Shown: positions 14,519-52,762 of the stretch, one piece after another
How positions within the stretch are numbered: the stretch's first letter is position 1
How the letters are laid out: each line of letters starts with the position of its first letter
Assembly: GCA_042567505.1 (NCBI GenBank)
Contig: JBHPJW010000006.1
Coordinates: 1,828 to 65,827, forward strand
Length of the DNA stretch: 64,000 nt
DNA from: Fibrobacterota bacterium
Lineage (GTDB): Bacteria > Fibrobacterota > Fibrobacteria > UBA11236 > JADFYW01
Direction: 5' to 3'
Translations under genes and position numbers: made by a program
Notes under the pieces: generated by a model
What the model was told of the DNA's origin: nothing
Databases searched by the model: none
What the model saw: only the letters and a program-made list of their open reading frames with translations

Positions 14519-14529
14519 ATATTCAGAAT

Positions 14530-14645: not shown

Positions 14646-14647
14646 AA

Positions 14648-18649: not shown

Positions 18650-21600
18650 CTATTCCAGCGTAAAGGCGTCCAGGTTGCCTCCGGCGGTGCCGAATATCAC
18701 CAGACCGGCATCCTCGCTTATCCAGGGACCGGCGTCAGCGTCGTCAGAAGCGTCGCTGTAGGGCCAATTGGTCATGGTTGCGGCGCTGGAGGCGTTGTCG
18801 TCTATGGCATAATATCGCCCTCCCTGCCGGCCGAAGTACACAACGGTGTCCCAGGGCAGGGGAGCTGCGTTTACGGTATCCAGTGCGTCATAAGCCCAGT
18901 CGACAGTGGCCGCTATGCCTGAGCCGTTGTCGGATACTTTCTTCACGTTGTTTTCCACAGCAACGTAGATGTCTCCGGTGTTGGCGGTGTCGTCGGAGGT
19001 CTTTCCCATAATAAAGGCCGGGCCGGTGTTGGCGGTACCCAGGTTCACGGAAGTGGGAGACCATTTAAACGACCAGGTGGAAATAGTGATGGCGTACAGG
19101 CTGGAGGTGGCGGGTGTCACATAAAGCGTGTTCCTGTCCACCAGCAGGGGCAGCTGAACGTCTGTGCCCATGTTGATACCGGCGCCGGTCTGGGTTCCGT
19201 CGTAATCATACTTGTAGACATATCCGCCCCCGCCCGTGGCCGTGGCGACATATATCTCATCATTTTTTACCACGAGGTCCGCGCTCAGGCTGACGTCGGC
19301 CAGGTTCACCGGCCATCCGCTCATGGTGGAATCATTAATGTAATTATACCTTGTTATGTAGTTTGTATAGGTAATAAAAAACGTGGAGTCGTCCGGGCTG
19401 GCATAGGGATTGCCCGCCGTGGCGTTGAGATCAAGGGGCGTGAAGACTTCGGAAGAGGAAGAAATATCATCCTGCCTGCCTATCACGTATTCTCCGGCTG
19501 AAGCGAAGATCTTGTATTTGCTTACGTCCGTGTCGTAGACATAAGTGGGCATGTTGCATGCCCCGTATGCCGAGGTGGAAAAAAACCATTTCTGCTGCCC
19601 GTCGCTCAAATTATAGCTGAAGAGCCTGTTAACGCCGGATCCTGTGCCTATATAAATCCGGTTCTCGGTAATGGCCCCGCCCTGCACAGGGCCCAGGCCT
19701 GTCTTGCTCCATGCTGCGGCCACCATATTCTTGGTGTAATTGTCTATGGAAGCAGTGGAGTCGCCGTTTCCGATGGCGTCGAAGGCCCAGATTTTGAAGT
19801 AATACAAGGTGTTTATACTCAGTCCGGTGATGGTGGTGGAGGTGGTGGCAGCTGACGTCAGGGCGCCGTCGTCGCCATCGTCCCATTCCGTGCCGGAGCT
19901 GTCCCGCGCCTCTGCCAGGGTGGTGCCGTACCAGATCTCATAGTGATCAAAGTTCCGGTCCGTGGCTGCGGTCCACCCCAGGGTAACCGTGGTGCCCGTG
20001 GAGTCCGATCCCGCCAGGGAGGCCAGCCCGGCCGGAATTTTGGTATCGATGGCAAAAGTATCGCTTTCGGTGGTGTCCCTATTGGATGAGCCGTCGGTGG
20101 CTATCACCCGGACCAGGTACACGGTATCTGTGTTGGGCAGGTCCGTGTCGACGTCCCAGAGGATGGTATCATTTCCCGTGGCCGAGGTGTCTATGCCCGT
20201 GCCTATGTCCCCGGAAGTGGTTTCCAGGCTGTCATTGCTGTCCCAGCTGCCGCCGTAGAGCTTGTACTCCACTTTTATGTCTACCGTGCCGTCATTGGCG
20301 TCATCAACCTCATACCCCACTCTCACGCTGTCTGGGTGGTATTGGGCGGCATTGACATAAGGCGCGTCATCCCATCCCGTCACCACTGGATCATTTGTGG
20401 CCAGGGTGGTGGTGTTTACGTCAGTATCCGTGTCCTCATTGCCCATGGAATCCAGAGCCCATATCTTAAAGTAATAGGTGGAGGAGGGAATGAGCGAAGT
20501 GATATTGGTGGTGTCGGTGGCCATGGTGGCCAGGGATGCGTCATTGTCCTGGTCCCATTCCAGGGCCGTTCCGGTGCGGCCCTGGACGTCCGACTGGCTG
20601 GTGCCATACCAAATTTCATAATGGGAAAAATGGGATTCGCTGCTGGTAACCGTCCAGGAAAGCCCCACGTCGGTGGCATTTGTGGCCCCAACTGTCAGGC
20701 CGGCCAGTCCCGAGGGGTCCACCAGGTCTATATCAAAGCTGCCGGAGACCGTGGTGTCTGTATTGCTGTCGTCGTCGATGCAGTGGACCCTGACGTTATA
20801 GGCGGCGTCTGTGGTACCGGGGATCAAATCAGTGTATACGTCCCACTGCAGGGTGTCATCTATGCTCGCTCCCGTAGAAATGGTATCGTAATCCCCGGAA
20901 AGCGTGGACGGGTTTGTCCAGGAACAGGAGCTCGCCAGGCAGTATTGCAGCGAACAGACGGCCGTGGTATCGTTGTCATCGCTTACCTCATAGCCCACCC
21001 GGACCGTGCCGGAGTCTATTTGCTCGGCGTCAACCTGGGCGGCCTGGTCCCAGCCCGTGACCGTGGGCGCCGGGTCATCCAGGGTGGTTGTGCTGTCCCC
21101 TGTTATCGTAGCTTCGTTATTCATGGCATCCACGGCCCAGATTTTAAAATGATACTTGGTGGAAGGGCTCAAACCGGTAACAATCATGCTGGTGGTGGCT
21201 ATGTCCTTCATGCCGTTGTTGTTGTCCCCGTCCCATTCCAGGGCTGATCCGTTGCGGTTTTCCACTTCGCTTTTAGAAGAACCGTACCAGATTTCATAGT
21301 GGTCGAAATGTCCTTCATCGGATAATGCCGTCCAGGAAAAACTCACTGAAGTGCTTAAAGGATCCACCACGGCAAAGTCGGCCAGCCCCACCGGAGATTT
21401 GGTGTCCAGGCCGAAGGCCGCGCTCTGCGCGGTGTCGGCCAGCCCGCCGTCACTGGCGATGACGCGCACGTAATAGGTGCCGTCTATGGCATCGCCCAGT
21501 TGGTCACGAACGCTCCATCTAATGGTACGATCGGCGTACTCATTGGTGGCGTCCACTCCGGCGCCTATGTTCCCGGCGGTATCGGTGGCGGCGGTCCAGG

Positions 21601-24434: not shown

Positions 24435-24695
24435 TTAGACCTTGAATTCGATATTCAGTCTGGTGCCTGTGGCTTCGGCCACCCGTATCAGCGTGCTGAC
24501 AGTGTTTCCACCGCCTCCATTATGTTCCATCCTGGAAACCACTTGCTGGGTGATCCTCAGGCGTGAAGCCAGTTCTTCCTGGGTCATCCCAACCATCAAG
24601 CGTACTTTCTTGATGAGGTTTTCCGTTTCCGGTACGACGGTTCCGGCGGATCGCTCTGTTTTGGGTTCTTCCAGGGTTGTTTCGGGATTAATCAT
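24435..24695 (-). CDS. XRE-family helix-turn-helix transcriptional regulator
   Basis: HTH motif MVGMTQEELASRLRITQQVVSRMEHN; lies 65 bp upstream, same strand, of the giant surface-protein gene. Confidence 0.8.
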   Translation of the reverse strand: MINPETTLEEPKTERSAGTVVPETENLIKKVRLMVGMTQEELASRLRITQQVVSRMEHNGGGGNTVSTLIRVAEATGTRLNIEFKV

Positions 24696-25746: not shown

Positions 25747-27228
25747 TTATTCGTACTGGGCCTCGCCGCCGATTTCATTGAGGAAATCCCCCACCTTTTC
25801 ATCACTTATCTCTTCCTCCTGGATCTCGTCGGGGGGATCATGCCTGGGTGATTCCAGGTTTTCTTCCGCAGACCGGGCTTCCTCCATATCAGAGATCATT
25901 CGCAAAGGAATTGCGGCTGTCCTGGGCTGGGCCTGACCGTTCTTAACAATGTAGGGGGTGATGAAGATTATCAAGTCTTTTTTAACGATGTTCTTTGAGG
26001 TATGTTTGAACAGAATTCCCAGTAAGGGGATGTCTTTTAAAAATGGAATCCCCCTTTCAGTTTCATTTTCAACCTTGGATGTCAGGCCCCCGATCACTAC
26101 CGTTTCGCCGTCATTTACCACCACTGTAGTTTTTGCCTCTGTAGTGGTTACAATGGGCCCGCGGGTAATCGCGTCAGTGCGGGCCTCGCTTCTCTGTGGA
26201 GACAAGTCGAGAATGACCCTGTTGTCATTAGTGATATGGGGAGTGACAATAAGTTCGATTCCCGCGTCCACGAATTCTGTGGTGGAGTTTAGATTCGCGT
26301 CCAACTTGTTGAAGGGCCGCCGTTCGCCGATAAAAATCCTGGCTTCGGTATTATCAAGCGTGGTTATCTGCGGTTTGGCAACCACTTCGCCTTTTCCCTC
26401 TGAAAGGAGGTGTTCAATGGAGGCGCCCAGCCTGCCGTCGAGCAGCCTGGCTGCCACGGCCAGAGTGGGATTGGCCACTCTTCCCGGAGAAGATCTGCCC
26501 AGAACCGCTCCTGATTGGCTGGCTGAAGGAACATCATTCAAATCAGGTGCCGGCGCTCCGGTTCCATAACCCCAGTTGATTCCCAATTCCTGGGCCGCGT
26601 CTGAACTTGCCTCGATTATCTGCGCTTGAATGTGTACTTGATAGGTTTCAACGTCAAGGTTTATGATGGCTTTTTTTATCTCGCCTAATTTTGATTGAAT
26701 GTCGGTTATAATAAAGGCGTTGGACATCTCCACAATAGCCAGTTTCCCCCTTTCAGACAGGAGACCGGTTACGGCGGTTTGCAGATCTTCCACCTTGGTG
26801 TGTTTGAGGTGGATTATCTCCCTAATCAGCTGAGCCTCTTTTTCCTGGGAGTTGAATTCCTTAAGGGACTGCACGTAGATGTATTCGTCCTCAATGGAAT
26901 AGGTAAGGCCGTACATCTGGCACAGCACCTCCAGAGCCTGCTTCCAGGTTTTGGCCGTCAGCGTCAGGTTCAGACGGCCGGAAAGCGTGGGAGACAGGAC
27001 GATGTCTACCTTCCCTGCGGCGGATATGGCCTTGAAAGCTGAGCGAATATCCAGGTTGGGGAAGTAAAAATCCCTGGCAACATTCTGAGAAGATGCGGCC
27101 GGCCCTGGTTGGTTGGTATTATCCGGGTTCTGACCCGAAGGAGGTTCGCTCTGATCCTGGCCTGAGAGCAGGCCGCCCATCAGGAACAACGTGAGAATTA
27201 TTCTTTTCAGTACGTCCCGGTGCTTCAT
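25747..27228 (-). CDS. pilQ: type IV pilus secretin PilQ (GspD/PilQ secretin family, short N-terminus)
   Basis: Secretin C-domain VVIGGLTSKVENETERGIPFLKDIPLLGILFKHT...LIIFITPYIV; signal peptide; last gene of pilMNOPQ. Confidence 0.9.
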   Translation of the reverse strand: MKHRDVLKRIILTLFLMGGLLSGQDQSEPPSGQNPDNTNQPGPAASSQNVARDFYFPNLDIRSAFKAISAAGKVDIVLSPTLSGRLNLTLTAKTWKQALEVLCQMYGLTYSIEDEYIYVQSLKEFNSQEKEAQLIREIIHLKHTKVEDLQTAVTGLLSERGKLAIVEMSNAFIITDIQSKLGEIKKAIINLDVETYQVHIQAQIIEASSDAAQELGINWGYGTGAPAPDLNDVPSASQSGAVLGRSSPGRVANPTLAVAARLLDGRLGASIEHLLSEGKGEVVAKPQITTLDNTEARIFIGERRPFNKLDANLNSTTEFVDAGIELIVTPHITNDNRVILDLSPQRSEARTDAITRGPIVTTTEAKTTVVVNDGETVVIGGLTSKVENETERGIPFLKDIPLLGILFKHTSKNIVKKDLIIFITPYIVKNGQAQPRTAAIPLRMISDMEEARSAEENLESPRHDPPDEIQEEEISDEKVGDFLNEIGGEAQYE

Positions 27229-28865
27229 GGTAGCATCCTTTCCTTTGGAGATTTAAGCTTCAGGGTATAGAAACGGAACACCCCGTATTCTGATATTTCA
27301 AATACGACTTTATGCCGTGTAATCTGAGTGACTTTGCCATTGGATATGGAATCGCCTTTTCTCAGAGCAATTGATATGGCAGGTTCTGTTCTATGCTCTA
27401 ACACGGCCAGCGGGTCTTTGGCATTCCAGATAATCCCTACCAGTTTCATCTGGTCGAGGATTATGTCTCTGTCCGAAAGCGGCGCATGTTCCACAGGGAT
27501 AAAAGGATCACGGCGCCCAAAGCTGGTATACTGGACCTTTTTTCTCTCCCTCTCGCGCTTGCGTTTTTCCTGTTCCTCAATCCTTTTTTTCTCAGCAAGT
27601 ATCCTGGCCATTTCCTGTTCTCTTTCTATTCTTTCCTGTTCAGCCTTGCGCTTTTCTTCCAGGCGGAGCTTTTCTTTTCGCTTCAAATTGAGGATCTCTT
27701 CCTCCTTTTTCCTTTTTTCCTCCCCAGCTTTTTTCCTGGCCAATTTCTCCTCTTTCTTTTTCGCCTCTTCTTCGGCCCTTTGTTTGGGTTCCAGTTCTTT
27801 TTTTTTTAATGCTTCTTCCTCCGCCCTTTGTTTGGCTGCCAGTTCTTTTTGTTTTCTGGCTTCTTCTTCAGCCTTTTGTTTCGCGGCTAATCTCATTTCT
27901 TCAGCTTCCCTCTCCGCTTGTTGTGTTTTTATGCTCTTTCTTTGTTCAGGAGTTAGTTTGTCTTCATATGCCAGTAGGTTGTTCTTGACCCAGCCGGTAT
28001 CCTTCCCAGTGTACACTTGAAACCAGTCCTTTTTTCTGCTGATTCCGGTGACTTTTTCGCCGGCATGTATTGTTCTGATTGTTTGCGAGCCCGTTCCTGG
28101 AGCATCTCTCAGTTTTATCCTGTTGCTGAGAGCGATATAGTCCCGGTTTTCTTCAGAAATAGAGAACGTCTTACCCGGCATGGTTTTTAATCGGGATGTT
28201 TTTCGGTCCATGGCAGTTCCAAGGTCAAAAGCGCTTTCCGTCCCCAGGACATCCTCCAGTTTCACTGAGTCTTCTGCCTGGATCTCCCGGGGATTGCCGG
28301 TATCAGGCGTTTCCACGGTGGGGGGCGGTAATTGGATGGACTCATCGGGATTCTCATTCTGGGCGAGGAGTATATGGCTCGATCCTTCAATTTCTGAAAT
28401 GGGCTGGGTGGAGGGAGAAACCGTCCAGTGGAATTTGTCCCCCCTTGATTTTCCCAACGCGAGGTTGATGGTCCCGGCATTGGATTTTGAGGCCTTGTAT
28501 TTGCTGCTTCGGTTCAGGGTTCGAAGGCTGAAACCCACACTCAGAAAACCACGAACCTTGCCGTGGTTTTTCCCGATGACTTTGCGGACGGCCATATGTG
28601 ACACATAGGGGTTGTTTCTGGCGATGGGATAGTTGCCGTAGATGATACTGCTCCCGGTTTCCAGAAAGTTAATGGAATAAATTCCGGTTTCAGCCTCGAA
28701 ATGCTGGAAAAACCTGGGGATGCGCGAGGCCAGCGAATCCTTCCGGAAAGAAAATTCCACAAACACCTGGTCGCCGTCGCTGGCCAGGCGCACTTTTTCG
28801 AGAATAGCGCCGCGAAGCGGCGCCGTGAGGCACGCCAACAGGAAGAATAAGGCGCCGGGTTTCAT
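27225..28865 (-). CDS. PilP-like pilus assembly protein fused to AMIN-like N-domain, SH3b domain and ~130-aa K/E-rich coiled coil
   Basis: Position between pilO and pilQ. C-terminal RRDPFIP...LVGIIWN...GKVTQITRHKVVF resembles PilP core. SH3b-like segment IKLRDAPGTGSQTIRTIHAGEKVTGISRKKDWFQVY...GWV. Long AEEEA/KK/RKAEQER repeats. 4-nt overlap with pilQ. Confidence 0.6.
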   Translation of the reverse strand: MKPGALFFLLACLTAPLRGAILEKVRLASDGDQVFVEFSFRKDSLASRIPRFFQHFEAETGIYSINFLETGSSIIYGNYPIARNNPYVSHMAVRKVIGKNHGKVRGFLSVGFSLRTLNRSSKYKASKSNAGTINLALGKSRGDKFHWTVSPSTQPISEIEGSSHILLAQNENPDESIQLPPPTVETPDTGNPREIQAEDSVKLEDVLGTESAFDLGTAMDRKTSRLKTMPGKTFSISEENRDYIALSNRIKLRDAPGTGSQTIRTIHAGEKVTGISRKKDWFQVYTGKDTGWVKNNLLAYEDKLTPEQRKSIKTQQAEREAEEMRLAAKQKAEEEARKQKELAAKQRAEEEALKKKELEPKQRAEEEAKKKEEKLARKKAGEEKRKKEEEILNLKRKEKLRLEEKRKAEQERIEREQEMARILAEKKRIEEQEKRKRERERKKVQYTSFGRRDPFIPVEHAPLSDRDIILDQMKLVGIIWNAKDPLAVLEHRTEPAISIALRKGDSISNGKVTQITRHKVVFEISEYGVFRFYTLKLKSPKERMLP

Positions 28866-28867
28866 CG

Positions 28868-29452
28868 TTATTTAGACGTGAATGTTTTCAATTGAAATTT
28901 TGTGTCAATGGTATTGATGATATCATCAATTTGAGATACGTTTTTTACCCTTTTGACTGACGCGTTCTGCATAATATGCACATTGGTGATGGCAGTGGGG
29001 TAGGTAAAGTTCGCTATTTCTTGAAAAAAGGCCCCCAGTCCGTGATAACCGGACTCCACCTTGATAGCGTAATTATTTTCCATGTAAAATTCCTTTTCCA
29101 TGGCATTCAACGGCTCAAAAAGCACCGGTACCACTGAGGACCTTCTCGACGCCCTGGAAAGATCCTGCAGACGCTTGGGAATGAAGTCCTGGTCCGGGAA
29201 CATTTCCTTCAGCCTGATAAAGTCTTCTGAAGCCTGTTTTATCTCCCGCTGCAGTTCTCCTTTTCTTTGGTTCTGTGTCATTATCTTGCTCAACTCAGTT
29301 TTCTTATTGTTGAGCACGCTTTCCAATCGCTGGCTCTCCTCGTTATAGGGAATCCACTCCCTGGACCAGAACAGATACATCAGGTAGAACACAAGAGCCA
29401 TGCACGCTCCGGCGTATATCAGCATTTTGGTTTTCAGGGTAAGTTGTTTCAT
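28868..29452 (-). CDS. pilO: type IV pilus assembly protein PilO
   Basis: N-terminal TM helix, coiled coil, then PilO-like periplasmic core; operon position. Confidence 0.75.
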   Translation of the reverse strand: MKQLTLKTKMLIYAGACMALVFYLMYLFWSREWIPYNEESQRLESVLNNKKTELSKIMTQNQRKGELQREIKQASEDFIRLKEMFPDQDFIPKRLQDLSRASRRSSVVPVLFEPLNAMEKEFYMENNYAIKVESGYHGLGAFFQEIANFTYPTAITNVHIMQNASVKRVKNVSQIDDIINTIDTKFQLKTFTSK

Positions 29453-30069
29453 GAAACCACGTCAGCAACCCGGGCTGACGGTCTTTCCGCTCCCAGATTT
29501 AAATTGACCTTAATTTTCAAAGTAAAGATGAATGCGTCTGGTTTTATTGATCCGTCCACCTGAATTTTATCCAGACTGACGTTCAGGAAATAATTGTCTT
29601 TTTCCAAGGCTATCATGTAAACTGCGACCTCGGAAAATAAATGGGACGTTCCAATTAAAAGCAAGTCTCCGGCCTGCTCATTTTCCTGCTTTATTTCCTT
29701 GATCCAGGTATGGGGCGGCACTGTTTTGCTCAATCCCTCCAGTATGCGGACCCATACCTGTTTGTTGAAGCTTATGCTTTTTAATGAACGGTTCTTGGCG
29801 TTTTTTTCCTGCAGCAACCGCTCCAGCTTTTTGATTTGAGACAGGATTTTTTTATTGGCCTTGATGTCGGCTTCAATGGATGCCAATTTTTCTTTATTGT
29901 CTTTCAGGTCGCTGTGAATGGTGGAAATACCAATCAAGTAGGCCAGCAACGTGATTAACACCACGAGACTGGGAACCACTATTTTAGTATCCAGCAGGTA
30001 GGAATAATCTTTCTTGATTTTCCGTTCCTCAACCGGAAGCAGGTTTATTTCTATTAATTCAGACATCAA
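29449..30069 (-). CDS. pilN: type IV pilus assembly protein PilN
   Basis: Conserved N-terminal INLLP motif (ELIEINLLPVEERK), single TM, coiled coil. Confidence 0.8.
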   Translation of the reverse strand: MMSELIEINLLPVEERKIKKDYSYLLDTKIVVPSLVVLITLLAYLIGISTIHSDLKDNKEKLASIEADIKANKKILSQIKKLERLLQEKNAKNRSLKSISFNKQVWVRILEGLSKTVPPHTWIKEIKQENEQAGDLLLIGTSHLFSEVAVYMIALEKDNYFLNVSLDKIQVDGSIKPDAFIFTLKIKVNLNLGAERPSARVADVVS

Positions 30070-31148
30070 AACCGCCTCAAAGCCAATCCGGTGGCAACCG
30101 TTAAAGTAGTGGAGATGTCTTGAGGGACTGCCCCGACAAATTTTTTCCGGTCATAAGCCATAGTACCCAGCGGGTCAGCGATTTCTACCTGGGTTTCGTG
30201 CCTTTCCGCCAGCAGGTCCGGGAGGTTTTCTATGCAGGCGCCTCCCCCGCAGATGATTATTTTGTCAATGGCCAGATTGTCCTCAGATGACTGGAAATAA
30301 CTGAATGCCAGATCAAGTCCTATGCTGAGCTCTTCCACGGAAATTTCTATGCAGCGCTGGACGGTATCATCGTTGTAATTGCCCCGTTCTCTCCCCTTCA
30401 GGATGGCCATGGCTTCCCACTCTTCCACCTGGAGTTCTTTCTGCAGAGACTGGATAAAATAACTGCCGGCCGTTGGAATGTCCCTGGTAGAATGATATGC
30501 GCCATGCTTTATGAAAGTCAGATTGGTGACGTTTTCTCCTATGTTTACCAGGCACAAGACCTTTTTTTTATCTTCCGGAGAAGCTGTGAAGAAAAAGGCG
30601 TTGGCAACAGCGAAAGTGTCCACATCAATATTGACCGGATCCAGTCCCGCATCCCGGATCAGTGACAGGAATGGCTGCATTACTTTTAATCTGGCCGCAA
30701 CCAGGAGGACTTCCATGTCTCCTGTGACGGGATTTTTATCAAGGATTTTGTAATCGAGCTGAATGTCTTCCACATCAAAAGGGCTGTGCCTTCCCGCTTC
30801 CATGAGAATGAGTTCATCGTCTGATTCGAGTTTGGAGGATTTCAATCGAATACGGTCAGCAATAACCCCATATGACCATGAAAGGGCGAAATTCACTTTT
30901 TTTACCTTTCCCGCCGGATCGGTTTTATTGATGAGAGAAGTTATGGCGTGCAGGAGTTCGTCCCGGTTCTTGATTTCACCGCTTTCCATGGTCCCTTCTT
31001 TGAAAACGTGAATTCCGGCACCCAAAAGGACAGGACCTTTTGTCCCATGTTTGATATAAACGATTTTAACGCTGTGATTACCAATGTCGAGGCCGACACT
31101 GACGGGATCACCTCCAAACAAACGGAGAACTCGCTTCTTTATTTCCAA
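30066..31148 (-). CDS. pilM: type IV pilus assembly protein PilM (actin-like ATPase fold)
   Basis: Phosphate-1 motif VGLDIGNHSVKIVYI; FtsA/PilM-like length and operon position. Confidence 0.85.
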   Translation of the reverse strand: MEIKKRVLRLFGGDPVSVGLDIGNHSVKIVYIKHGTKGPVLLGAGIHVFKEGTMESGEIKNRDELLHAITSLINKTDPAGKVKKVNFALSWSYGVIADRIRLKSSKLESDDELILMEAGRHSPFDVEDIQLDYKILDKNPVTGDMEVLLVAARLKVMQPFLSLIRDAGLDPVNIDVDTFAVANAFFFTASPEDKKKVLCLVNIGENVTNLTFIKHGAYHSTRDIPTAGSYFIQSLQKELQVEEWEAMAILKGRERGNYNDDTVQRCIEISVEELSIGLDLAFSYFQSSEDNLAIDKIIICGGGACIENLPDLLAERHETQVEIADPLGTMAYDRKKFVGAVPQDISTTLTVATGLALRRF

Positions 31149-31435
31149 AGACTTTTTACCCAGTTACTTTTAACCGTATTTGATTCTACAGCCTTAAGTT
31201 ATTTATGTCAAGTTAATATAAATCTTTAATAGTTATGGCAGATACAAATATCGTGTAATATTTATTTTTAATGAATTACATAAGTATTATATTGTGATTC
31301 TAGTTATAGAGGATACTATATGTTGTGGGGATCTGACGTAATTATAATCTCATAGAGATATGAGAATAAATTTTCCGGGATCCCTCTCACAGGGAGGGAA
31401 AGTTCTCTTTTTAAGGTCTGGCAGGGGTGAAAGAT

Positions 31436-32649
31436 CTAGCGGAACTGGGAATCCATCCGGTTTTTTTCAAATACAAAACGGACTATTTTTTCCTGAGTAG
31501 CTGTCTCGATTTCACAGAATTTCAATCGGTGGATGAATACATTCGCGTCATTCTTTTTTAACGCGTCATAATTTATGACCTCGGACAGGATGTTTTTCAA
31601 AGAAGAACCGGGCAGGTCAAAATTCAGAGACAAAGTAGATCCCGAACTTAGGCCGCTGGACAGACGGAGACAAATGCCGCCTCCGCTGATATCCATGATT
31701 CGGCCTTCCAGTACCGTTCCATTGGGTAAATCATCTTTATCAGGGCTTTCATCTTTTCCCCCGGTCTTTTTGACCAAGGTTGCTTTGCAAGGGATATTAA
31801 CGTCTACCCGCACCCAGTTCCGTAATTGCTTTCTCTGGAGATCGTGGGTGTGTTCTAATACAATACTGCCGTCTCGTATTTCCTTTACCCGGATTTTTAG
31901 ACGGTACTCAGCGTCACCTGGTCGGATAAACCAGACTGGCAGACTTTGATTCTGATTTATCTGCCCAATTGGCAGGTCTTTACCCTCCAGAGACCACACT
32001 CTTTCGTCTATTTCCTTAATGGTGGCTTTTATTGACATATCGCTTTTTCTGTTTCCAATGGTAACAGGCATTCCGGGATTGAGCTGTTTCGTGCTGGTCA
32101 GGTGAGTTTCAACTGGAAGTCTGGAGTAATTCAGTTTTTTCCTTAATCGGGACAGGAGGTCGTACGGCATCAGCTCAGAGCTGTCTTTTTTCTCCAGGGT
32201 GTTCAGATAGGCGTCGAGGCTTTCCTCATAGACCGTTGGAGAGTTGAAAATCGTATCGGCCTGAAGCTGCTTTCCCGCTTCCACTATATTTTTAAGAAGT
32301 TTCGTTTCCTTGGGCGTGAGACCTCTTTTTGATACCAGTTCTCCAAAATTCTGCCAACTCAGTTCAATTTTTTCCCGTCTCTGTTTATCGGATTTTAGGA
32401 TTTCCCATGCCACAAAAAAACCGAGAATGAAAATAGCGAGAGAACCCAGCAGAATTATCAAAATGGGGCTGGCGGATGGGAAAGCTTTGCGGATATTGTC
32501 ATAGACACTATCATCCGCCGGGAGAGATATTGCCAGGCCGCTTACCAGGAGGATAATCCTGGCAAGCAGGTATTTTATGTTTTCTTTTTCTTCCACTTCT
32601 GGAACTTTTTTAGAATGAATATAAAAATTAATCAAATTTCGATAACACA
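31436..32649 (-). CDS. membrane-anchored PilZ-domain protein (predicted c-di-GMP receptor) upstream of pilM
   Basis: Two N-terminal TM helices; C-terminal PilZ motifs RKQLRNWVRVDV (RxxxR) and DISGGG (DxSxxG); start taken at internal Met MCYRN. Confidence 0.65.
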
Positions 32650-32705
32650 TTATTTTACTAAATGAAAGATTGTTTACCGCCCTCCGAAATGATAAAATAA
32701 GAAAA

Positions 32706-33020
32706 ATGAAAAAGATACCCCTTTCCGAAGTCCAGGATGGAATGATCCTGGCTAAACCTGTTATCGGTTCCGACGGCAAAATACTTTTGGCCGAAGGTGA
32801 AGTACTCAAGGCAAAAATGGCCATGCGTCTTTCGAATTGGGGTGTGGCTATCGCTTACATTCGTGAGGAAGGCGAGGAAGGAAGTTCTGATGAGGATGGG
32901 GAACAGAAGGCGGCAAGGTTGAAAATGCTGGAAAATACTTTTAAGGGAGTATTGGATAATCCCAATATGAAAACCATCTATGTTGCCATAAAAAAACATA
33001 TCCAGGAAAAAGAGGCATGA
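32706..33020 (+). CDS. small DUF3391-like protein (N-terminal module usually fused to HD-GYP/HD domains)
   Basis: MKKIPLSEVQDGMILAKPVIGSDGKILLAEGEVL resembles the DUF3391 consensus; 4-nt ATGA overlap with the downstream HDOD gene. Confidence 0.45.
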   Translation: MKKIPLSEVQDGMILAKPVIGSDGKILLAEGEVLKAKMAMRLSNWGVAIAYIREEGEEGSSDEDGEQKAARLKMLENTFKGVLDNPNMKTIYVAIKKHIQEKEA

Positions 33021-33883
33021 GCAACCAGGTAGAAAACCTGAGAAACATAACTCAGAGGTTGACAGATCTGCCGACTCTTCCCACTGTGGTTGCAAAAATC
33101 GCCATGTTGATGCAGAATCCCAGGACTTCCGCTAATGAAGTAGGGCAAGCAATAACCAATGACCAATCTCTGACTTCAAAGACGCTTAAACTGGTTAATT
33201 CAGCCTTTTACGGATTCCCCGGGAGGATCAGTACGGTTACCCATGCCATAGTAATTCTGGGGTTTACCACCGTGAAAAATATTGTTTTAACCGCCTCTAT
33301 TTTTGACGCAATAGGGAAGAAGGAAGGTGCCTCGCAGGGTTTTAACATTAAGGCTTTCTGGCTTCATTCAATCGCTACGGGAGCGACCGCAAAAGTACTG
33401 GCTGAATTCCTGAAATCAAAGAAAACCGAGGAAGCCTTTATCGGAGGTCTGTTGCATGACCTCGGAAAAGTAATCTTAAGCCATTTTGCCAGGGATGAAT
33501 TTGAGGCTGTCCTCCAGTACAGGGACGAGCATGATTGTCTGCTCTATCAAGCGGAAAAAGCAATTTTAGAAATTTCGCATCAGGAACTGGGCGGATGGAT
33601 TGCAGACACGTGGAACCTGCCGAAGGATTTGGCTGCAGTTATTCAGTATCATCATACGCCCAATTCTGCTGGAATATACAAGGAAATAACCAGTATCATT
33701 CACCTTGCAGACATACTTACCCGGGCTCTCGGGAGCGGTTCAGGTGGTGATAACCGAATTCCAGTGGTGGATGATTCGGTCTGGGAAAACCTGAAGATGG
33801 GCAGTCTGGATTTGCCCAAGCTGCTTGCCAGAGCCGAGGATGAGATTGAAAAGGCGAGTATCTACCTGCAGGAGGCAATGTAG
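33017..33883 (+). CDS. HDOD-domain signalling protein
   Basis: HDOD consensus LPTLPTVVAKIAMLMQNP...LKLVNSAFYGFP...FWLHSIATGATAKVLAEFL...GGLLHDLGKVIL. Confidence 0.8.
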   Translation: MSNQVENLRNITQRLTDLPTLPTVVAKIAMLMQNPRTSANEVGQAITNDQSLTSKTLKLVNSAFYGFPGRISTVTHAIVILGFTTVKNIVLTASIFDAIGKKEGASQGFNIKAFWLHSIATGATAKVLAEFLKSKKTEEAFIGGLLHDLGKVILSHFARDEFEAVLQYRDEHDCLLYQAEKAILEISHQELGGWIADTWNLPKDLAAVIQYHHTPNSAGIYKEITSIIHLADILTRALGSGSGGDNRIPVVDDSVWENLKMGSLDLPKLLARAEDEIEKASIYLQEAM

Positions 33884-33927
33884 ATCTGGTTGAGTATGTA
33901 TCCAGCATCGCAGGCACAGGATATGAT

Positions 33928-35535
33928 ATGGACGAACTGAAGAAACTCAAGGACATCAACAGGGACCTGCGCCGGTCATTTGACCAACTTTCCGCCCTGC
34001 AGAGCATGACCATCAGCATAAGCGAATCCAAAACGCTAAACGATATCGTTTCATCTCTCATCCAGGTTATTCCACAGATTATTGAATGCCATTCCTGCAG
34101 GATCTATTTATTTGATAATGAAAAATTCAATAAGGTCGGCGAAGCAATCTATAAGGAAAGCATTCCGGTTAAAGCTATTGATGAAGAAGTGATGTACTGG
34201 TGCTGTAAGCGCGGCACCGTTACTGTGCAACCGGGACTTGAGGATAAAACCGGGCACGCTATTGCTCCCCTTACTCATACCGCGGATATTATCGGCGTCA
34301 TAGTGCTCGACTTGGGAGAGTACATAGACTATTATTCGGAGGTCACCGGTCTGGCTCTGACCACTATTGCCAACCACACAGCCCTTGCCATTTCAAACTA
34401 CCGTTTCCACACTCAGATGGAAGAAAAGGCCGGGAAATTAAACGACATGAAGAAATACGTAGATGGGGTGATAGCCTCCATCGCCCATTCTGTGATTACT
34501 GTTGATCACGATGGAAAAATCACGGTTTTCAACCGGAAAGCAGAAGATTTTTTCCAGATTCGCTCAAAGATAGCCGTTGGCAACTCCTATTCAGTGGTTC
34601 TGCCGGAATACCTGCGAAATATTTTTTCCGAGCTGTTGCTCAACATACAAAGCGGAAAAGATCCCGCTCCGGTGGAGCTGGCCTTCTCCACCATCTATAA
34701 TGAGGAAAGAAATACCCTGATTACAGCCTCTCCGTTAAAGGTTACCGGAACCCATAAGCCGGGAATGGTGTGCATTTGCCAGGATCTCGCGCTGTCAAAA
34801 GAGGTGGAGCGTCTGAAGGAATTGGATCAGATGAAAGATGATTTTATTTCAATGGTTAGCCATGAACTGAAAACGCCGTTGGCTTCTATTCTCGCTTATT
34901 CGGAAAGCCTCCTTGATGGTTTGGCTGAGAACAAGGAAGAAGAAAAGGAGTACCTGAAAGTTATTTATGATGAGGGAAACCGTCTTGGCCAATTAGTTAA
35001 CGATATTCTGGATTTATCAAAAATTGAATCAGGTAAAATGGATTTCCACATGGCCTCTTTTGCGCCCGCCGACCTGATAAAAAAGGGAATATCCTCTGTA
35101 AAAACTCTGTGTAAGAAGAAAAAACAAAATCTGATAGTCCAGGTGGATGAGGGCTTACCCGCGGTTCACGGTGACTTTGAGAAAATCACCCAGGTTTTAA
35201 TCAACATGCTTTCCAACGCTGTCAAATTTACCAATGAAGGGGGGGACATTACCGTAGGTTCGTTAGGTTTGGGAGGAGGTGAAACATATGAAGAAAATGC
35301 TGTTTCTACGGTCCTGTTCTTTGTTGAGGATACCGGAATTGGAATCAAAAAGGAAGATTTCAAAAAGGTATTTGATAAATTCACCCATATCGAGCCGGTG
35401 ATGCATCATGTTGAGGGGACCGGATTGGGAATGCCCATTTCCCGGGAGATTATGAGAAAGCATGGCAGCGATCTGGAATTTACCAGTCATCCCGGCAGGG
35501 GATCCAGGTTTGAATTTAAATTGAAAAGTACCTGA
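33928..35535 (+). CDS. sensor histidine kinase (GAF + PAS + HisKA + HATPase_c), cytoplasmic
   Basis: H-box MVSHELKTPLASI; N/G boxes LSNAVKFTNEGGDI, EDTGIGI, GTGLGMPISRE; GAF-like N-terminal region; no TM segments. Confidence 0.85.
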   Translation: MDELKKLKDINRDLRRSFDQLSALQSMTISISESKTLNDIVSSLIQVIPQIIECHSCRIYLFDNEKFNKVGEAIYKESIPVKAIDEEVMYWCCKRGTVTVQPGLEDKTGHAIAPLTHTADIIGVIVLDLGEYIDYYSEVTGLALTTIANHTALAISNYRFHTQMEEKAGKLNDMKKYVDGVIASIAHSVITVDHDGKITVFNRKAEDFFQIRSKIAVGNSYSVVLPEYLRNIFSELLLNIQSGKDPAPVELAFSTIYNEERNTLITASPLKVTGTHKPGMVCICQDLALSKEVERLKELDQMKDDFISMVSHELKTPLASILAYSESLLDGLAENKEEEKEYLKVIYDEGNRLGQLVNDILDLSKIESGKMDFHMASFAPADLIKKGISSVKTLCKKKKQNLIVQVDEGLPAVHGDFEKITQVLINMLSNAVKFTNEGGDITVGSLGLGGGETYEENAVSTVLFFVEDTGIGIKKEDFKKVFDKFTHIEPVMHHVEGTGLGMPISREIMRKHGSDLEFTSHPGRGSRFEFKLKST

Positions 35536-35570
35536 GACAGGAAATTTTCAGGGTTGTCTTCGTTTTTTTT
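35535..35570 (+). terminator. candidate rho-independent terminator after the histidine kinase gene
   Basis: agaca...tgtct short stem followed by tcgtttttttt; weak. Confidence 0.3.
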
Positions 35571-35930
35571 CCAGGTGTTTTTGCCTCCTCGCTTCCTGAC
35601 GTTGATGAAAGACGTCATCCAGATAGCATTCTTTAGATATGAGGAAAACTATTACCATGAAAGACAGGATGAGGCAGGCGCTTTCAAAGGTGACTGTATT
35701 CAAGATGGCGGTCAGCAATTCAGTGTACCTTGTGAAATAATGAAATTTATTGTGGGCATTTCGGTTCGTCCTCAGCAGGATCCCATACCACTACCATTTG
35801 ATTTTATCATGACTTATTGAAAAAATCCATCCGCAATCATCAAAAAACATAATTTTCTAAAAACTCTCAAAAACATTGCACAGGAAAGCTTTAGTAATAG
35901 GCCTGATTTTACGATATAATTAGTATTGAT

Positions 35931-36227
35931 ATGACAGTTAATCCAGAATACCGAATTTCCAACCGTAAAAGGTTAGACATTGAACAGCTGCAGGATGTTC
36001 ATTTAACCATTCGGCTGATCTTGGGCCAGACCAGAATGAAAGTTCGTGAACTGTTGGAGATGAAGCCCGGCAAGGTAGTAGATTTGAACCGTCTGGCCGG
36101 AGAAACAGTGGATATTGTGATAAACAATAAAGTGATAGCCAAAGGTGAAGTGGTCGTGATTGATGATAATTTTGGAGTGAGGCTGGTCACCCTCCTGTCC
36201 CCCGAAGAGCGCTTAAAGCAGATGTAG
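35931..36227 (+). CDS. FliN/SpoA-domain protein (flagellar motor switch / T3SS SpoA family), stand-alone
   Basis: LTIRLILGQTRMKVRELLEMKPGKVVDLNRLAGETVDIVINNKVIAKGEVVVIDDNFGVRLVTLL matches the FliN C-terminal consensus; no other flagellar or T3SS genes in the window. Confidence 0.7.
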   Translation: MTVNPEYRISNRKRLDIEQLQDVHLTIRLILGQTRMKVRELLEMKPGKVVDLNRLAGETVDIVINNKVIAKGEVVVIDDNFGVRLVTLLSPEERLKQM

Positions 36228-36450: not shown

Positions 36451-38910
36451 TTGCCGGTTTTTAAATTACTTTTCGCCTGCCTCTTGATTTGGTTTTCACT
36501 CGGCCATTCCCAAGAACTGTTTCAGTTGGAAACTGAAGACGTCCTGCCTGTGGACAGTCTTGGCCTGGATACGGATACAGTCGCGGCTGACTCGGGTATT
36601 GCGGGAGACACCATTTCCTGGTCCAGCCGGACATTTCACTATGACGCTCAAAAGGAGAAGTTTTCTCTTTATAATTCTGCGGTGCTCAACTACAAGGGGG
36701 CTAACCTCAGGGCGGACACCATATTTCTTGACAATAAGGCGCAGATGGTGGCGGCTTTCGGCCGTCCAGTGATAAAAGACCGGGACCAGCCGGAAATCAT
36801 AGGCTACCGGTTGAAATACAACCATTCCAGACAGGTAGGGGAAATCTATTACGGGACCACCAGGAGGGATAACCAGATGTTCAACGGCGTAGAGGTGAGA
36901 AGGCAGAAGACGGGGGAAATACACATTGCCCGGGGGGACTTTTCCACCTGCGATCACCTGGAGGACCAGCACTTTTATTTTTACTGCCGCCGCATGGTGC
37001 TTGAGCCCAACAAAAAAGTGATGGCCAGACCGGTGGTGCTGAATGTGAGCAATGTGCCGGTGGCGGTGGCTCCCATGCTGGTTATTCCGCTGGGAAAGGG
37101 GCGGCGCTCGGGTTTTACCCGCCCTAAGATCGGAGGGGACCAATCCCAGGGTTTCTATATGCGTGATCTGGGATATTACTGGAGCATGAATGACTACATG
37201 GACTTGCAGCTGTTCGGCGACCTGATTGAGGGGGAAAGGGGCACCTTTGATAAAACCAATGTCCGGGGACTGTATTACTACAACAAGCGGGACGTTTTAA
37301 GCGGGAACCTGGGAGGTAACGCATACATCAGTGAGTTTAATCCGGGGAACTCCGGATGGGAAATAAACTTTGCCCATGATCAGAACCTGACCCCGGACGG
37401 GGTGCAGAAGTTAAAGGGCGGCGGAAGGTTTGTCTCCAGCCGGAACGTTCTGGGTGAGGCCCTGAATGAGAAAGAGGCCGTTAATCAGACAGCCAACGCC
37501 CGCCTGGGATATACCAATACTCTGGACTGGAACAAGGCACGTCTGAACATAAGCGGGGTGCAGGACTATAATCTGACCACCGGACAGCAGACCAGGGAAC
37601 TTCCCAGGGCCAGTTTTGCCTTTGGGGCCCCGCTTTTTCCCATCGCTGAAAATCACTACTGGGATTTTGAATCAGCAGAGGCGGATGAACCCCCCTGGTT
37701 TAAGCAATTGTACCAGGAGATAAATTATTCCTATTCGGGTGATTTCAGCATATATACCGAAAAGAAACCCGCCTTGGGGGGGGCTGTGGCCGGAGACTCC
37801 AACACTTATGCGGGAGCCAAAAATGTTCTCGGCCTTTCGGCCAAATACCCCTTATTACAATACATAAACGTTGTTCCGACCATAAACAGTCAGCATTACT
37901 GGAACCTGCACTCTTCCATCGCCTCCGGCGGCGGGCCAAAAGCCGATTTTATGCCTTCCCAGGGCAGGATAGGCGACAATGTGTATAAGTTCAATATGGG
38001 GGTGTCGGCAAACACCAAGTTATACGGCATCGCCCAGCCGGACCTGGGGCGCTGGGAAAAAATCCGTCACGTGGTCTCTCCGACCATAGGATATACCTAT
38101 GCCCCTGAGATTGACACGAACAGGACTTTTGTGGCCCATCCCAAATTCAATACCGCGGCCTATCAACTTCGTTCTAAAAGAGTGAATTTGGGCCTGGGAA
38201 ATGATGTGGACATTAAAATCCAGTCCAGTGATACAGCTGCCGGTAAACCTGAGCCCAATGGCCTGAAGATCCTGGCAACCAGCTCAAACATAAGTTATGA
38301 TTTTGAAAAAGAGAAAAGGGACGGCAGGGGCTGGTCGGATATCTCGTCAACGGTCCGAACGGAAATACTTCAGAAACACATTCCCATCAGTGTCAGTATG
38401 ACCCACAGACCCTACAATGATTACGGCCCTGCCGGGCCGGAAAATCAGGTTGTGACGCCCATATTAACAGCTTACAGTTTCAACTGGAGGAAAGATGTCT
38501 CAATAAACGGGAAAATGAATTCCGGACTCTGGGAGCCCGCAAAAGATACTACAGATACTCCGGAATTCACGCGCCTTCCCTGGTCGGCTAAGGTGTTTTA
38601 CAGCTTTAATTACAGCGCCAAACGGGTGAGCGCCACAACTTTCCAGAAGACCTTGACGCATTCATTTTCCGGCAGCATGAATTTTAATCCCAGCCCAAAG
38701 TGGGAAATGTCTTATAACACGAACTATAATTTTACCGAAGGGGAATTTTCCAAGCATTCCTTTGAATTCAACCGGGTCCTGCACTGCTGGAAGATGAAGT
38801 TTTCCTGGACTCCGGTCGGACCCGCCTCAGGCTGGCAGTTCAATATATACGTGATAGACATTCCCGACATTAAGCTCGAGAGCGCGCATACCAATCTCAA
38901 GAAGAGATAG
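36451..38910 (+). CDS. large outer-membrane beta-barrel protein, LptD/OstA-like (LPS assembly) candidate
   Basis: Signal peptide; N-terminal OstA-like segment (YNSAVLNYKGANLRADTIFLDNKAQMVAAFGRPV); ~820 aa with aromatic-rich beta strands and terminal aromatic residue pattern. Confidence 0.5.
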   Translation: MPVFKLLFACLLIWFSLGHSQELFQLETEDVLPVDSLGLDTDTVAADSGIAGDTISWSSRTFHYDAQKEKFSLYNSAVLNYKGANLRADTIFLDNKAQMVAAFGRPVIKDRDQPEIIGYRLKYNHSRQVGEIYYGTTRRDNQMFNGVEVRRQKTGEIHIARGDFSTCDHLEDQHFYFYCRRMVLEPNKKVMARPVVLNVSNVPVAVAPMLVIPLGKGRRSGFTRPKIGGDQSQGFYMRDLGYYWSMNDYMDLQLFGDLIEGERGTFDKTNVRGLYYYNKRDVLSGNLGGNAYISEFNPGNSGWEINFAHDQNLTPDGVQKLKGGGRFVSSRNVLGEALNEKEAVNQTANARLGYTNTLDWNKARLNISGVQDYNLTTGQQTRELPRASFAFGAPLFPIAENHYWDFESAEADEPPWFKQLYQEINYSYSGDFSIYTEKKPALGGAVAGDSNTYAGAKNVLGLSAKYPLLQYINVVPTINSQHYWNLHSSIASGGGPKADFMPSQGRIGDNVYKFNMGVSANTKLYGIAQPDLGRWEKIRHVVSPTIGYTYAPEIDTNRTFVAHPKFNTAAYQLRSKRVNLGLGNDVDIKIQSSDTAAGKPEPNGLKILATSSNISYDFEKEKRDGRGWSDISSTVRTEILQKHIPISVSMTHRPYNDYGPAGPENQVVTPILTAYSFNWRKDVSINGKMNSGLWEPAKDTTDTPEFTRLPWSAKVFYSFNYSAKRVSATTFQKTLTHSFSGSMNFNPSPKWEMSYNTNYNFTEGEFSKHSFEFNRVLHCWKMKFSWTPVGPASGWQFNIYVIDIPDIKLESAHTNLKKR

Positions 38911-43618: not shown

Positions 43619-44848
43619 ATGAACAATGAAGACGAAATAAATGAGCTGCTCAACCTTAAGCTTGAAAAGCTGGACAAACTGGATCTTGTCAAAGACGACG
43701 GTGATGATGATACCATTCTGCACGAACCATTAGAAGAAGTAAAGAAGGTTTTCAAACAACTGGACGGCATACCCGGCGGCAGGACCGGATTCATGCTGGT
43801 CTCCAGCAGCCCGGAGGTGCTTCAGCTGGAAAAGGTCCTGGCCAGGCCGTTTCCCGACCGGCCCAGCGGAACGCCTTTGCTACAGTCCATGACCCAACTT
43901 TCCGTCTCAGACAGAACAGACGAGTATAAATCGGAGATCCAGGTAGAGTACGATCTGGCCGTGAAAAGAATTGAGGGCCTTTACAGAAGCATAAGAAACG
44001 GGGAGACTGTTTCCCATTCCAGCATCCTGGAAATAGTGGAGTACTTCATGTCCGTGTTCATCAAGGACAGGTGTATCCTGCTCAACCTGTGCCATTATAA
44101 AAGTAAAAGAAAGGATTACCTGTTCAACCACATGCTGCATGTATGCCTGGTCGCTATCAACATAGCTACGGCCAGCGGTTATTCCCGGAAGCAGGTGCTG
44201 GAAGTGGGGGAGGCCGGGCTGCTGGCGGACACAGGCATGCTGCTGATATCAGACTACGTCAGGTTTAATCCCGGGAAATTGAGTGAGGAAGAGCTTTTTG
44301 ATGTGCATAGACATCCCATGGTGGGGCTTTATGCGCTGGAAAAGATTGAGAATATCCCATTGCCCGTTGCCTTTTGCGCCTACCAGCACCATGAGCGGCT
44401 GACCGGTGCGGGTTATCCCAAAAACAGGAAGGGAAGGCTCACCCACAATTATTCGAAAATAATAGCCATTGCGGATGTTTACCAGGCGCTCTGCAGCCAC
44501 CGGCCGTATAGAAAAGCCTTCCTGCCCCACCAGGCCATGATCAAGATACTTAAAATGGCCCGGCTGGAACTGCTGGACCAGAAGTTCGTGGACGCTTTGA
44601 TAAGGTATGTTTCATTCTATCCGGTAGGGTCTTTCGTGAGACTGGCCGACGGGCGCGTGGCAAAGGTAGTCCGGCCCAATGAGAACAGCGTGGAAAAACC
44701 CGTGGTTTCAGTGATTGCGGACAAAAGAGGAAACCTCCTGCCGGCTGACAGCATAGAGCAGATTAATTTATCCATTAAAAGGCAGTTCAGGATAACCGGG
44801 GCAGTGGACATACAGGTAGAACCGGACAGAGTGATGTATGGTTTATAG
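43619..44848 (+). CDS. HD-GYP domain c-di-GMP phosphodiesterase
   Basis: HD motif and signature HHERLTGAGYP; acidic coiled N-terminus. Confidence 0.85.
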   Translation: MNNEDEINELLNLKLEKLDKLDLVKDDGDDDTILHEPLEEVKKVFKQLDGIPGGRTGFMLVSSSPEVLQLEKVLARPFPDRPSGTPLLQSMTQLSVSDRTDEYKSEIQVEYDLAVKRIEGLYRSIRNGETVSHSSILEIVEYFMSVFIKDRCILLNLCHYKSKRKDYLFNHMLHVCLVAINIATASGYSRKQVLEVGEAGLLADTGMLLISDYVRFNPGKLSEEELFDVHRHPMVGLYALEKIENIPLPVAFCAYQHHERLTGAGYPKNRKGRLTHNYSKIIAIADVYQALCSHRPYRKAFLPHQAMIKILKMARLELLDQKFVDALIRYVSFYPVGSFVRLADGRVAKVVRPNENSVEKPVVSVIADKRGNLLPADSIEQINLSIKRQFRITGAVDIQVEPDRVMYGL

Positions 44849-52639: not shown

Positions 52640-52713
52640 AAGGGCATGTAGCTCAGTTGGTTAGAGCACCGCTCTGATAAGGCGGTGGTCGGAAGTTCAA
52701 ATCTTCCCATGCC
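52640..52713 (+). tRNA. tRNA-Ile (GAT)
   Basis: gggcatgtagctcagttggttagagcaccgctctgataaggcgg...; anticodon loop cTGATAa; CCA not encoded. Confidence 0.9.
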
Positions 52714-52723
52714 CAGGTTTCAG

Positions 52724-52762
52724 GAGTCAGTCAAATTGCCGTCTGACTCCTGGAGACGTGGG
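52724..52762. repeat. hairpin built from the CAGGAGTCAG motif between tRNA-Ile and tRNA-Ala
   Basis: caggagtcagtcaaattgccgtctgactcctgg. Confidence 0.7.

Follow-up and report, generated by a model that had tools for sequence, protein, structure and literature searches.

The 64-kb window analysed in this work (the whole stretch of DNA that was read, from an uncultured Fibrobacterota metagenome-assembled genome, MAG, with a GC content of about 47%) contains, next to a type IV pilus operon, a set of signalling genes that are best explained, with a probability of about 0.55, as three separable units and not as one machine: a pilus-side PilZ receptor for cyclic di-GMP (c-di-GMP), an operon encoding a small protein and an HDOD protein, and an ordinary flagellar FliN. 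Open reading frame (ORF) listing and Pfam scans place on the plus strand the small ORF, the HDOD gene, a PAS-HisKA-HATPase_c kinase, a 98-aa FliMN_C protein and LptD, and on the minus strand the PilZ gene, upstream of pilM (Table 1), which confirms the gene set named in a preliminary description of this DNA. In one Fibrobacterota lineage the region forms a conserved neighbourhood of motility-signalling genes, which are real and whose order is kept in related Fibrobacterota. The small ORF and the 98-aa protein show 100% identity to NCBI proteins of a Fibrobacterota bacterium. The loci of these relatives were obtained from a genome scan centred on FliN and from contig look-ups, and a metagenome scan with a 10-sequence alignment gave 4 loci.

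The PilZ protein is, according to its predicted structure, a membrane-tethered tandem-barrel receptor of the YcgR/MotI type. The AlphaFold2 (AF2) model, built on a 41-sequence alignment (predicted local distance difference test, pLDDT, 90.1), starts with two N-terminal transmembrane (TM) helices, after which come a helical domain and two beta-barrels, and ends in a C-terminal helix; the first barrel (AF2 strands 177-256) is PilZN-like and lies ahead of the PilZ barrel. Foldseek comparison with the PDB gave as top matches MotI/DgrA (5vx6; 7.7e-11), PP4397, MrkH, YcgR and VCA0042 (E 1e-8 to 1e-11), and the matches to 5vx6, 3kyf, 5y6f and 2rde extend over two domains. It is from these barrels and these matches that the YcgR/MotI-like character is deduced, since Pfam sequence models detect in this protein the PilZ barrel only, with no PilZN or YcgR match; several of its homologues have been named YcgR by the Joint Genome Institute (JGI). 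The c-di-GMP-binding motifs RxxxR and DxSxxG, present as RKQLR and DISGGG, are invariant in four PilZ orthologues, and in the 41-sequence alignment R255, R259, S304 and G305-G307 are invariant and D302 is found in at least 90% of the sequences. Thus, the two-TM protein with an intact motif set, on the same strand as pilM and upstream of it, that had been described is upheld by Pfam, by the AF2 model and by the motif alignments, and the motif degeneracy that had been named as counting against that description is not seen. An alternative start of the gene (ATG at 32650) would give a protein of 404 aa. A 462-aa ORF, reaching 32824, was rejected as over-extended because it would run into the small ORF.

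The pilus operon downstream comprises PilM, PilN, PilO and a secretin, all recognised by Pfam. The PilP slot, between pilO and pilQ, is occupied by an SH3-domain protein, kept in relatives with 490-790 aa, whose last 159 aa match PilP with E 8.7e-4 and 19.7 bits, under the cut-off of 25.6. The PilZ gene is separated from pilM by 287 bp in the window and by 200-320 nt across loci. The order PilZ-pilMNO-SH3-pilQ is found in 10 loci (the window, L002, L003, L004, L081, L083, L085, L086, L087 and L093), with one or two genes inserted within it in L087 and L093, and this adjacency, which the preliminary description had proposed to look for, is the most stable feature of the locus, maintained at PilZ identities as low as about 27%, with the divergent HDOD gene next in stability. 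Across loci the neighbour of the PilZ gene is pilM, and no flagellar gene apart from FliN has been found beside it.

The rest of the neighbourhood varies. In L081 (GCA_050294405.1) and L083 (GCA_015232855.1), whose FliN is 76-79% identical, pilQ-X-pilO-N-M-PilZ and, divergently, small-HDOD-kinase-FliN-LptD reproduce exactly the order of the window. L002 and L003 (and, partially, L001) present pilQ..pilM-PilZ and a divergent HDOD-FliN-LptD, without the small ORF or the kinase; the same is true of L085, where the divergent genes are HDOD-FliN and LptD is located about 4 kb beyond. L004 carries PilZ with a divergent small-HDOD-kinase-like set and FliN 3 kb further, L087 and L093 have small-HDOD divergent from PilZ...pilMNO and no FliN, and L086 keeps PilZ-pilMNO-SH3-pilQ alone. 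This conserved order supports the existence of a c-di-GMP input to the pilus machine. The c-di-GMP control of the pilus suggested in the preliminary description is reasonable for PilZ and unlikely with FliN as the switch.

Different observations concern the surroundings of the pilus genes. A PilB-type ATPase with an MshEN domain, a c-di-GMP-binding module, is encoded a few kb past pilQ in L085 (20552-21203) and L086 (13448-15115), and would be a possible second point at which c-di-GMP acts on the pilus; none was found in the window. Past the pilus operon of the window, on its downstream side, a fibronectin-III repeat protein of 1906 aa (18650-24370, minus strand) lies in a region with a GC content of 53-58%, against about 47% for the window, and ahead of it are an 86-aa HTH_3 gene (24435-24695) and a 193-aa protein without Pfam match. 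The same window contains a ComEC/Rec2 competence channel (Competence and Lactamase_B domains; 8719-11298, minus strand), and the pili could serve DNA uptake.

The small protein and the HDOD protein constitute a genuine, conserved and obligate two-gene unit, which is translationally coupled. As had been described, the stop codon of the small ORF and the start codon of the HDOD gene overlap by 4 nt (ATGA, 33017-33020), and HDOD is directly downstream of the small protein in 13 of the 13 distinct loci examined (the loci with the pair being the window, L004, L081/82, L083, L087, L088-L091, L092, L093/94, L095, L096 and L097). A word-index search for homologues of the small protein retrieved only 3 relatives; an exhaustive profile search retrieved 433 representatives at E<=1e-3, nearly all of them stand-alone proteins of 95-125 aa. 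The same profile also matches residues 1-61 to 1-94 of the HD_5 proteins P0148, P0160, P0239 and P0222 (E 1e-8 to 4e-6), and P0148 matches DUF3391 with E 7.6e-5, below the Pfam cut-off. The small ORF itself had been considered DUF3391-like and, together with HDOD, a split version of the DUF3391-HD(-GYP) architecture. The Pfam model of DUF3391 has no match to it at E<=10, whichever start is used, nor to its close relatives P0094 and P0097, so that what remains of the former proposal is a remote homology to the N-termini of HD-GYP proteins, detected by the profile search. The latter is not sustained, since the small protein belongs to a widespread stand-alone family that occurs with HDOD and is rarely fused to HD-GYP. 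Its AF2 model (pLDDT 87) begins with a beta-rich domain of about 52 residues, which an acidic linker joins to two helices; Foldseek found nothing significant for it in the PDB, the only resemblance being a minor beta-motif likeness to RNA polymerase beta' and MoeA.

The pair is also found in contexts that do not include the pilus, accompanied by REC-HD_5 and REC-PAS genes (L092), by a receiver (L097), or by a PAS kinase after HDOD (L096 and L088). In L095 (1-2642; JGI metagenome 3300036862) the operon CheW-MotA-MotB-small-HDOD, with overlapping stops and starts, shows the module transcribed together with flagellar stator genes in a different organism. The best PDB match of the HDOD protein is the Geobacter di-iron HDOD protein 3hc1 (E 4e-30), and it also matches Campylobacter jejuni Cj0248 (1vqr). 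According to published work (PMC11004494), Xanthomonas, Campylobacter and Pseudomonas show altered flagellar motility when HDOD proteins are lost; motility phenotypes have been reported for the HDOD proteins GsmR, Cj0248 and SadB and for two Pseudomonas protegens genes.

Of the relatives, only the closest ones, L081 and L083, carry the kinase where the window has it, after HDOD and before FliN; an HDOD-kinase adjacency occurs in L088 and L096 as well. The window kinase had been described as a GAF-PAS histidine kinase. The PAS, HisKA and HATPase_c domains are confirmed by Pfam, whereas GAF is tentative, as GAF_3 scores 25.0 bits, below its cut-off of 27, and the precomputed Pfam annotation of the orthologues includes only the other three domains. 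No Response_reg match was obtained in any scanned ORF of the window, in agreement with the statement that no cognate response regulator is encoded nearby.

Regarding FliN, its description as a stand-alone SpoA-domain protein is corroborated by Pfam. In phmmer searches it matches the Thermotoga maritima protein (1o6a) with E 1.3e-22 over 80 residues and the Salmonella one (8umd) with 2.5e-19, its PDB matches being 1o6a, 1yab, 8umd and 5xrw, and it shares with these two proteins 51% and 45% identity, respectively, and the C-terminal SPxER tail. The window copy is no more diverged than that of Fibromonas, which has 44% identity to Thermotoga and 40% to Salmonella. Its 90 homologues form a tight family of 96-98 aa in Fibrobacterota MAGs, and in the 12 Fibrobacterota genome loci FliN is always a stand-alone gene (12/12), never in a flagellar operon. 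The context is unrelated in 8 of these 12, for instance beside mraZ-ftsL-murE (L005) or beside uvrA (L008). A tblastn comparison of the ORFs of 68 canonical flagellar loci with these 12 loci and with the window gave matches to FliN, to receivers, to kinases and to PilZ-type proteins, and no others. In the window, flagellar, type III secretion system (T3SS), chemotaxis and receiver-domain genes were not found by Pfam in the large ORFs or in the few small intergenic ORFs scanned out of those listed, which agrees with the absence of flagellar and T3SS genes already pointed out.

Locus L008 corresponds to LIUG01, that is, Ca. Fibromonas termitidis IN01_221, which has been inferred to be motile and has one FliM and two FliN/FliY (published supplementary table), so that its orphan, orthologous to that of the window, is accompanied by a complete set of flagellar genes. 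According to published KEGG counts, FliN/FliY (K02417) is 2 and FliM is 1 in each of five flagellated Fibrobacteres genomes. The FliN/FliY count is 0 in five Fibrobacteraceae that have lost their flagella, one of them F. succinogenes, and pilM/N/O/Q are present in all those genomes, non-flagellated Fibrobacteraceae included (published Table 4). Weak evidence in the same direction is that Fibrobacter does not appear among the listed matches for FliN genome loci. Taking into account that FliN/FliY is absent from pilus-bearing, non-flagellated Fibrobacteraceae, the orphan FliN follows flagella and not pili. The repurposing of a FliN-like domain as a pilus switch, proposed as a possibility in the preliminary description, is probably wrong in view of this absence, of the canonical character of the protein and of its unrelated contexts. 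In related genomes the association of FliN with the HDOD/kinase neighbourhood is exact in L081 and L083 and reduced to HDOD-FliN in L001-L003 and L085. FliN follows HDOD by 10-27 nt in L001, L003 and L085, and such short gaps make it probable that both genes are co-transcribed in this sub-lineage.

In the window FliN seems to have a promoter of its own. The kinase gene ends in a terminator-like hairpin followed by a T-run, and the box CGATATAATTA upstream of FliN is identical in the window, L081 and L083, the remainder of the kinase-FliN spacer being unconserved; hence the suggestion of a separate promoter, of which this box is likely the -10 element. The box reads as a perfect TATAAT preceded by CGA and is similar to the -10 of sigma-28/SigD (GCCGATAT), its -35 being poor, and similar CGATA motifs are located upstream of FliN in L004 and L005. 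The assignment of a sigma-28 or sigma-54 promoter at the CGATATAAT box was discarded, as there is no more than TTAG or TAAG at the -35 and L005 does not keep the spacing, and the site is left as promoter-like.

Table 1. Features of the pilus and signalling region and other genes of the window (positions in the window).
Feature	Position	Strand	Evidence and remarks
PilZ, predicted membrane-anchored YcgR/MotI-like c-di-GMP receptor	31436..32596	-	Pfam PilZ E 4.6e-10; NCBI 386-aa model P0244
Type IV pilus alignment/secretin operon	25747..31148	-	Pfam
pilM	30066..31148	-	Pfam
pilN	29449..30069	-	Pfam
pilO	28868..29452	-	Pfam
SH3-domain protein with PilP-like C-terminus, 546 aa	27225..28865	-	Pfam
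pilQ secretin	25747..27228	-	Pfam
Sigma-70-like site, TTGACA-17-TAGAAT (11/12)	31211..31183	-	Upstream of pilM
HDOD-associated small protein, 104 aa (NCBI hypothetical ACFL5V_02345)	32706..33020	+	Start MKKIP at 32706 most plausible
Stand-alone HDOD protein, 288 aa	33017..33883	+	Pfam HDOD E 2.1e-63, 213.8 bits (cut-off 22.9)
Cytoplasmic PAS histidine kinase	33928..35535	+	HisKA 3.2e-23 (82.0 bits), HATPase_c 8e-23 (81.4 bits), PAS 1.7e-7
Terminator-like hairpin over kinase stop codon	35531..35552	+	T-run after it, ~35563-35570
CGATATAATTA box	35912..35922	+	9 nt upstream of the FliN ATG, in the 395-bp spacer
FliN, SpoA/FliMN_C domain, 98 aa	35931..36227	+	Pfam E 2e-22, 79.3 bits (cut-off 23.8)
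LptD_2 outer-membrane protein	36451..38910	+	Pfam 7.7e-61
Degenerate HD-GYP protein, HD_5	43619..44848	+	Pfam HD_5 4.3e-19, 69.3 bits
tRNA genes, two pairs	14443-14723 and 52642-52832	- and +	Rfam

The mechanism that is proposed comprises three parts. The PilZ receptor, probably transcribed apart and placed just upstream of pilM-N-O-(SH3/PilP-like)-Q, would change, upon c-di-GMP binding, the contact of its cytoplasmic barrels with the inner-membrane pilus platform (PilM/PilN/PilO or the ATPases), and would in this way act as a gate on the assembly or retraction of the pilus, just as the flagellar motor is gated by the soluble proteins YcgR and MotI. In the divergent operon, the 104-aa protein translationally coupled to the stand-alone HDOD protein, with the PAS kinase next to them in the closest relatives, may exert a metal-dependent signalling or adaptor function on motility organelles. 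FliN, for its part, would be a bona fide subunit of the flagellar C-ring encoded away from the flagellar operons, here under its own promoter, and probably one of two SpoA proteins, the other being a FliY/FliN copy whose gene lies elsewhere; it would be tied to the locus by a regulatory or historical association with HDOD, and not as a pilus component. A flagellum would then be expected in this genome.

It has to be noted that several data weigh against this proposal of three units. The flagellum of this organism and of its close relatives is inferred and not seen, and the MotAB and FliG homologues kept by non-flagellated Elusimicrobiota (preprint) indicate that motor remnants can exist without flagella. 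The nearest structural relatives of the PilZ protein (YcgR, MotI and PP4397/FlgZ) are effectors of the flagellar motor and not of the pilus. The 200-320 nt gaps and the near-consensus sigma-70-like site upstream of pilM suggest that PilZ and pilM are probably on separate transcripts. Matches to the PilZ family come only from MAGs labelled Fibrobacteria, Fibrobacteres or Fibrobacterota, and none bears the genus name Fibrobacter. Members of this genus have pili and lack flagella, and since the family has not been seen under that name, its distribution is so far compatible with a role in either organelle.

The main alternative is that the whole divergent cluster regulates the flagellar motor, PilZ being a membrane-tethered brake of the YcgR type and its adjacency to pilMNOPQ reflecting only co-ordination or inherited order. 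The brakes MotI, YcgR and PP4397 among the fold matches, the name given by JGI to several homologues, the adjacent FliN, the small-HDOD pair after motAB in L095, the flagellar phenotypes of HDOD mutants and the lack of matches under the name of non-flagellated Fibrobacter would all fit. This alternative is nevertheless considered unlikely, because PilZ remains beside pilM where FliN is absent (L086, L087 and L093), this adjacency is the best conserved trait of the locus, persisting at a PilZ identity of about 27%, and FliN is the sole flagellar gene ever adjoining that of PilZ. In another explanation there would be no functional coupling at all, the genes being neighbours by inherited order in one lineage, with LptD, FliN and the kinase working in their own pathways (outer membrane, flagellum and an unlinked regulator, respectively). 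Separate transcription units are indeed likely, in view of the 287-bp and 395-bp gaps, the hairpin after the kinase and the promoter-like sites; LptD is equally syntenic and functionally unrelated, and the full arrangement is confined to loci of one phylum. A complete lack of coupling is however rather improbable, because PilZ-pilM has outlasted rearrangements in which FliN, the kinase and LptD were lost, and the translationally coupled small-protein/HDOD pairing recurs outside the pilus context.

Finally, the organism could have no flagellum, and the 98-aa SpoA protein could have been recruited, along with the kinase, HDOD and PilZ, into a pilus switch that responds to c-di-GMP. The lack of flagellar genes in the window, the location of FliN at less than 5 kb from pilM in the window, L081, L083, L001-L003 and L085 (in some of them in an operon with HDOD), and the motor-protein remnants of Elusimicrobiota can be invoked in its favour. 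Against these, the window FliN is as conservative as the copy of the flagellated relative, or more so, when compared with Thermotoga and Salmonella; orphan FliN appears in unrelated contexts in two-thirds of the Fibrobacterota genome loci; it is missing beside PilZ-pilM in L086, L087 and L093; and Fibrobacteraceae with pili and without flagella lack FliN/FliY. Such a recruitment is therefore regarded as very unlikely, and the proposal of three separable units is retained. A broader and still doubtful extension would be that the small protein and HDOD form a widespread two-protein regulator of motility organelles, acting in different lineages on the flagellar stator (motAB-small-HDOD), on the C-ring (HDOD-FliN) and on the type IV pilus, and that in Fibrobacterota it works with a YcgR-like receptor docked on PilMNO, switching between swimming and attachment by pili.

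Other genes complete the window. A "true HD-GYP phosphodiesterase" had been noted 8 kb downstream, but this protein is degenerate: it keeps the GYP motif (HHERLTGAGYP, aligned to HHERWDGTGYP of PmGH, 4mcw), and its catalytic HD dyad has become A-D (LLADTGM, against PMHDIGK in 4mcw and LLHDIGK in 5z7c), which makes that label unsafe. Judging from these residues, the protein may be inactive or of a receptor type. LptD adjoins FliN downstream in L001-L003, L081 and L083 and is nearby in L085, and it is probably unrelated in function to the neighbourhood of FliN. The type VI secretion genes tssF and tssG are found in L083 (14212-16916; GCA_015232855.1) about 4 kb past FliN and LptD. The remaining large ORFs of the window encode, according to Pfam, ABC transporters, ComEC, aspartyl-tRNA synthetase (AspRS), PhoH, the 1906-aa fn3 protein, release factor 2 (RF2)/PrmC and ribosomal proteins. 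The RF2 (prfB) ORF (50552-51529, plus strand) begins at position 28 of the Pfam PCRF profile, which points to an absent N-terminus, a frame further upstream or a frameshift; the programmed frameshift site CTTTGAC was not found near prfB. An Rfam scan of the window gave only the four tRNAs, with no c-di-GMP riboswitch or other family.

All the domains described here are already known, and the proteins are variants and not a new class. As far as we know, there is no earlier description of a YcgR-like architecture anchored by TM helices beside pilus genes, of the pairing of the small protein with HDOD, or of operons of the HDOD-FliN and motAB-small-HDOD kinds. HDOD is one of the most frequent bacterial signalling domains for which no mechanism is known, and an obligate small partner, together with recurrent links to motAB, FliN and pilMNOPQ, provides concrete hypotheses about its interactions. 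The known routes of c-di-GMP to type IV pili are MshEN-type ATPases or FimX-PilZ-PilB; a receptor of the YcgR type that is anchored by TM helices and keeps its place next to the pilus alignment complex would represent, if true, a different route of control. Fibrobacterota degrade polymers, and their attachment by means of pili has been proposed (published), so these genes offer a pointer to how attachment and swimming might be co-ordinated in the phylum. The case of FliN also calls for caution, as repurposing cannot be deduced from finding an orphan flagellar gene in a window that has no other genes of the flagellum.

When compared with known systems, the PilZ protein resembles YcgR of Escherichia coli, MotI/DgrA of Bacillus subtilis and FlgZ/PP4397 of Pseudomonas in its tandem beta-barrels, with RxxxR and DxSxxG between them, over about 220 residues. 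These proteins are soluble and act on stator or rotor proteins of the flagellum, whereas that of the window has, in addition, a pair of TM helices and a helical domain about 60 residues long, and is syntenic with pilMNOPQ. Its HDOD protein shares with GsmR (Xanthomonas), Cj0248 (C. jejuni) and SadB (Pseudomonas) the HDOD domain and the genomic links to motility genes; however, GsmR has a receiver domain and SadB a YbaK-like domain, while the window protein is stand-alone and coupled to a dedicated 104-aa partner. This partner recalls DUF3391 (PF11871), the N-terminal domain of many HD-GYP proteins, in that its profile reaches the N-termini of HD_5 proteins, and differs from it in a C-terminal two-helix extension, in being nearly always stand-alone and in having HDOD, and not HD-GYP, as its partner. 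The degenerate HD-GYP protein can be likened to PA2572 of Pseudomonas aeruginosa, a degenerate HD-GYP protein of the YN-GYP type, in which GYP is also kept and the catalytic dyad altered, the dyad being A-D in the window protein. FliN has in common with the T. maritima (1o6a/1yab) and Salmonella (8umd) proteins the SpoA domain, an identity of 45-51% and the SPxER tail. With respect to the FliN of the flagellar C-ring, its 98 aa leave almost no N-terminal extension, and in one sub-lineage its gene is in an operon with HDOD. The two FliN/FliY-type genes of each flagellated Fibrobacteres genome parallel the situation in Helicobacter pylori (5xrw), where FliN and FliY form a pair.

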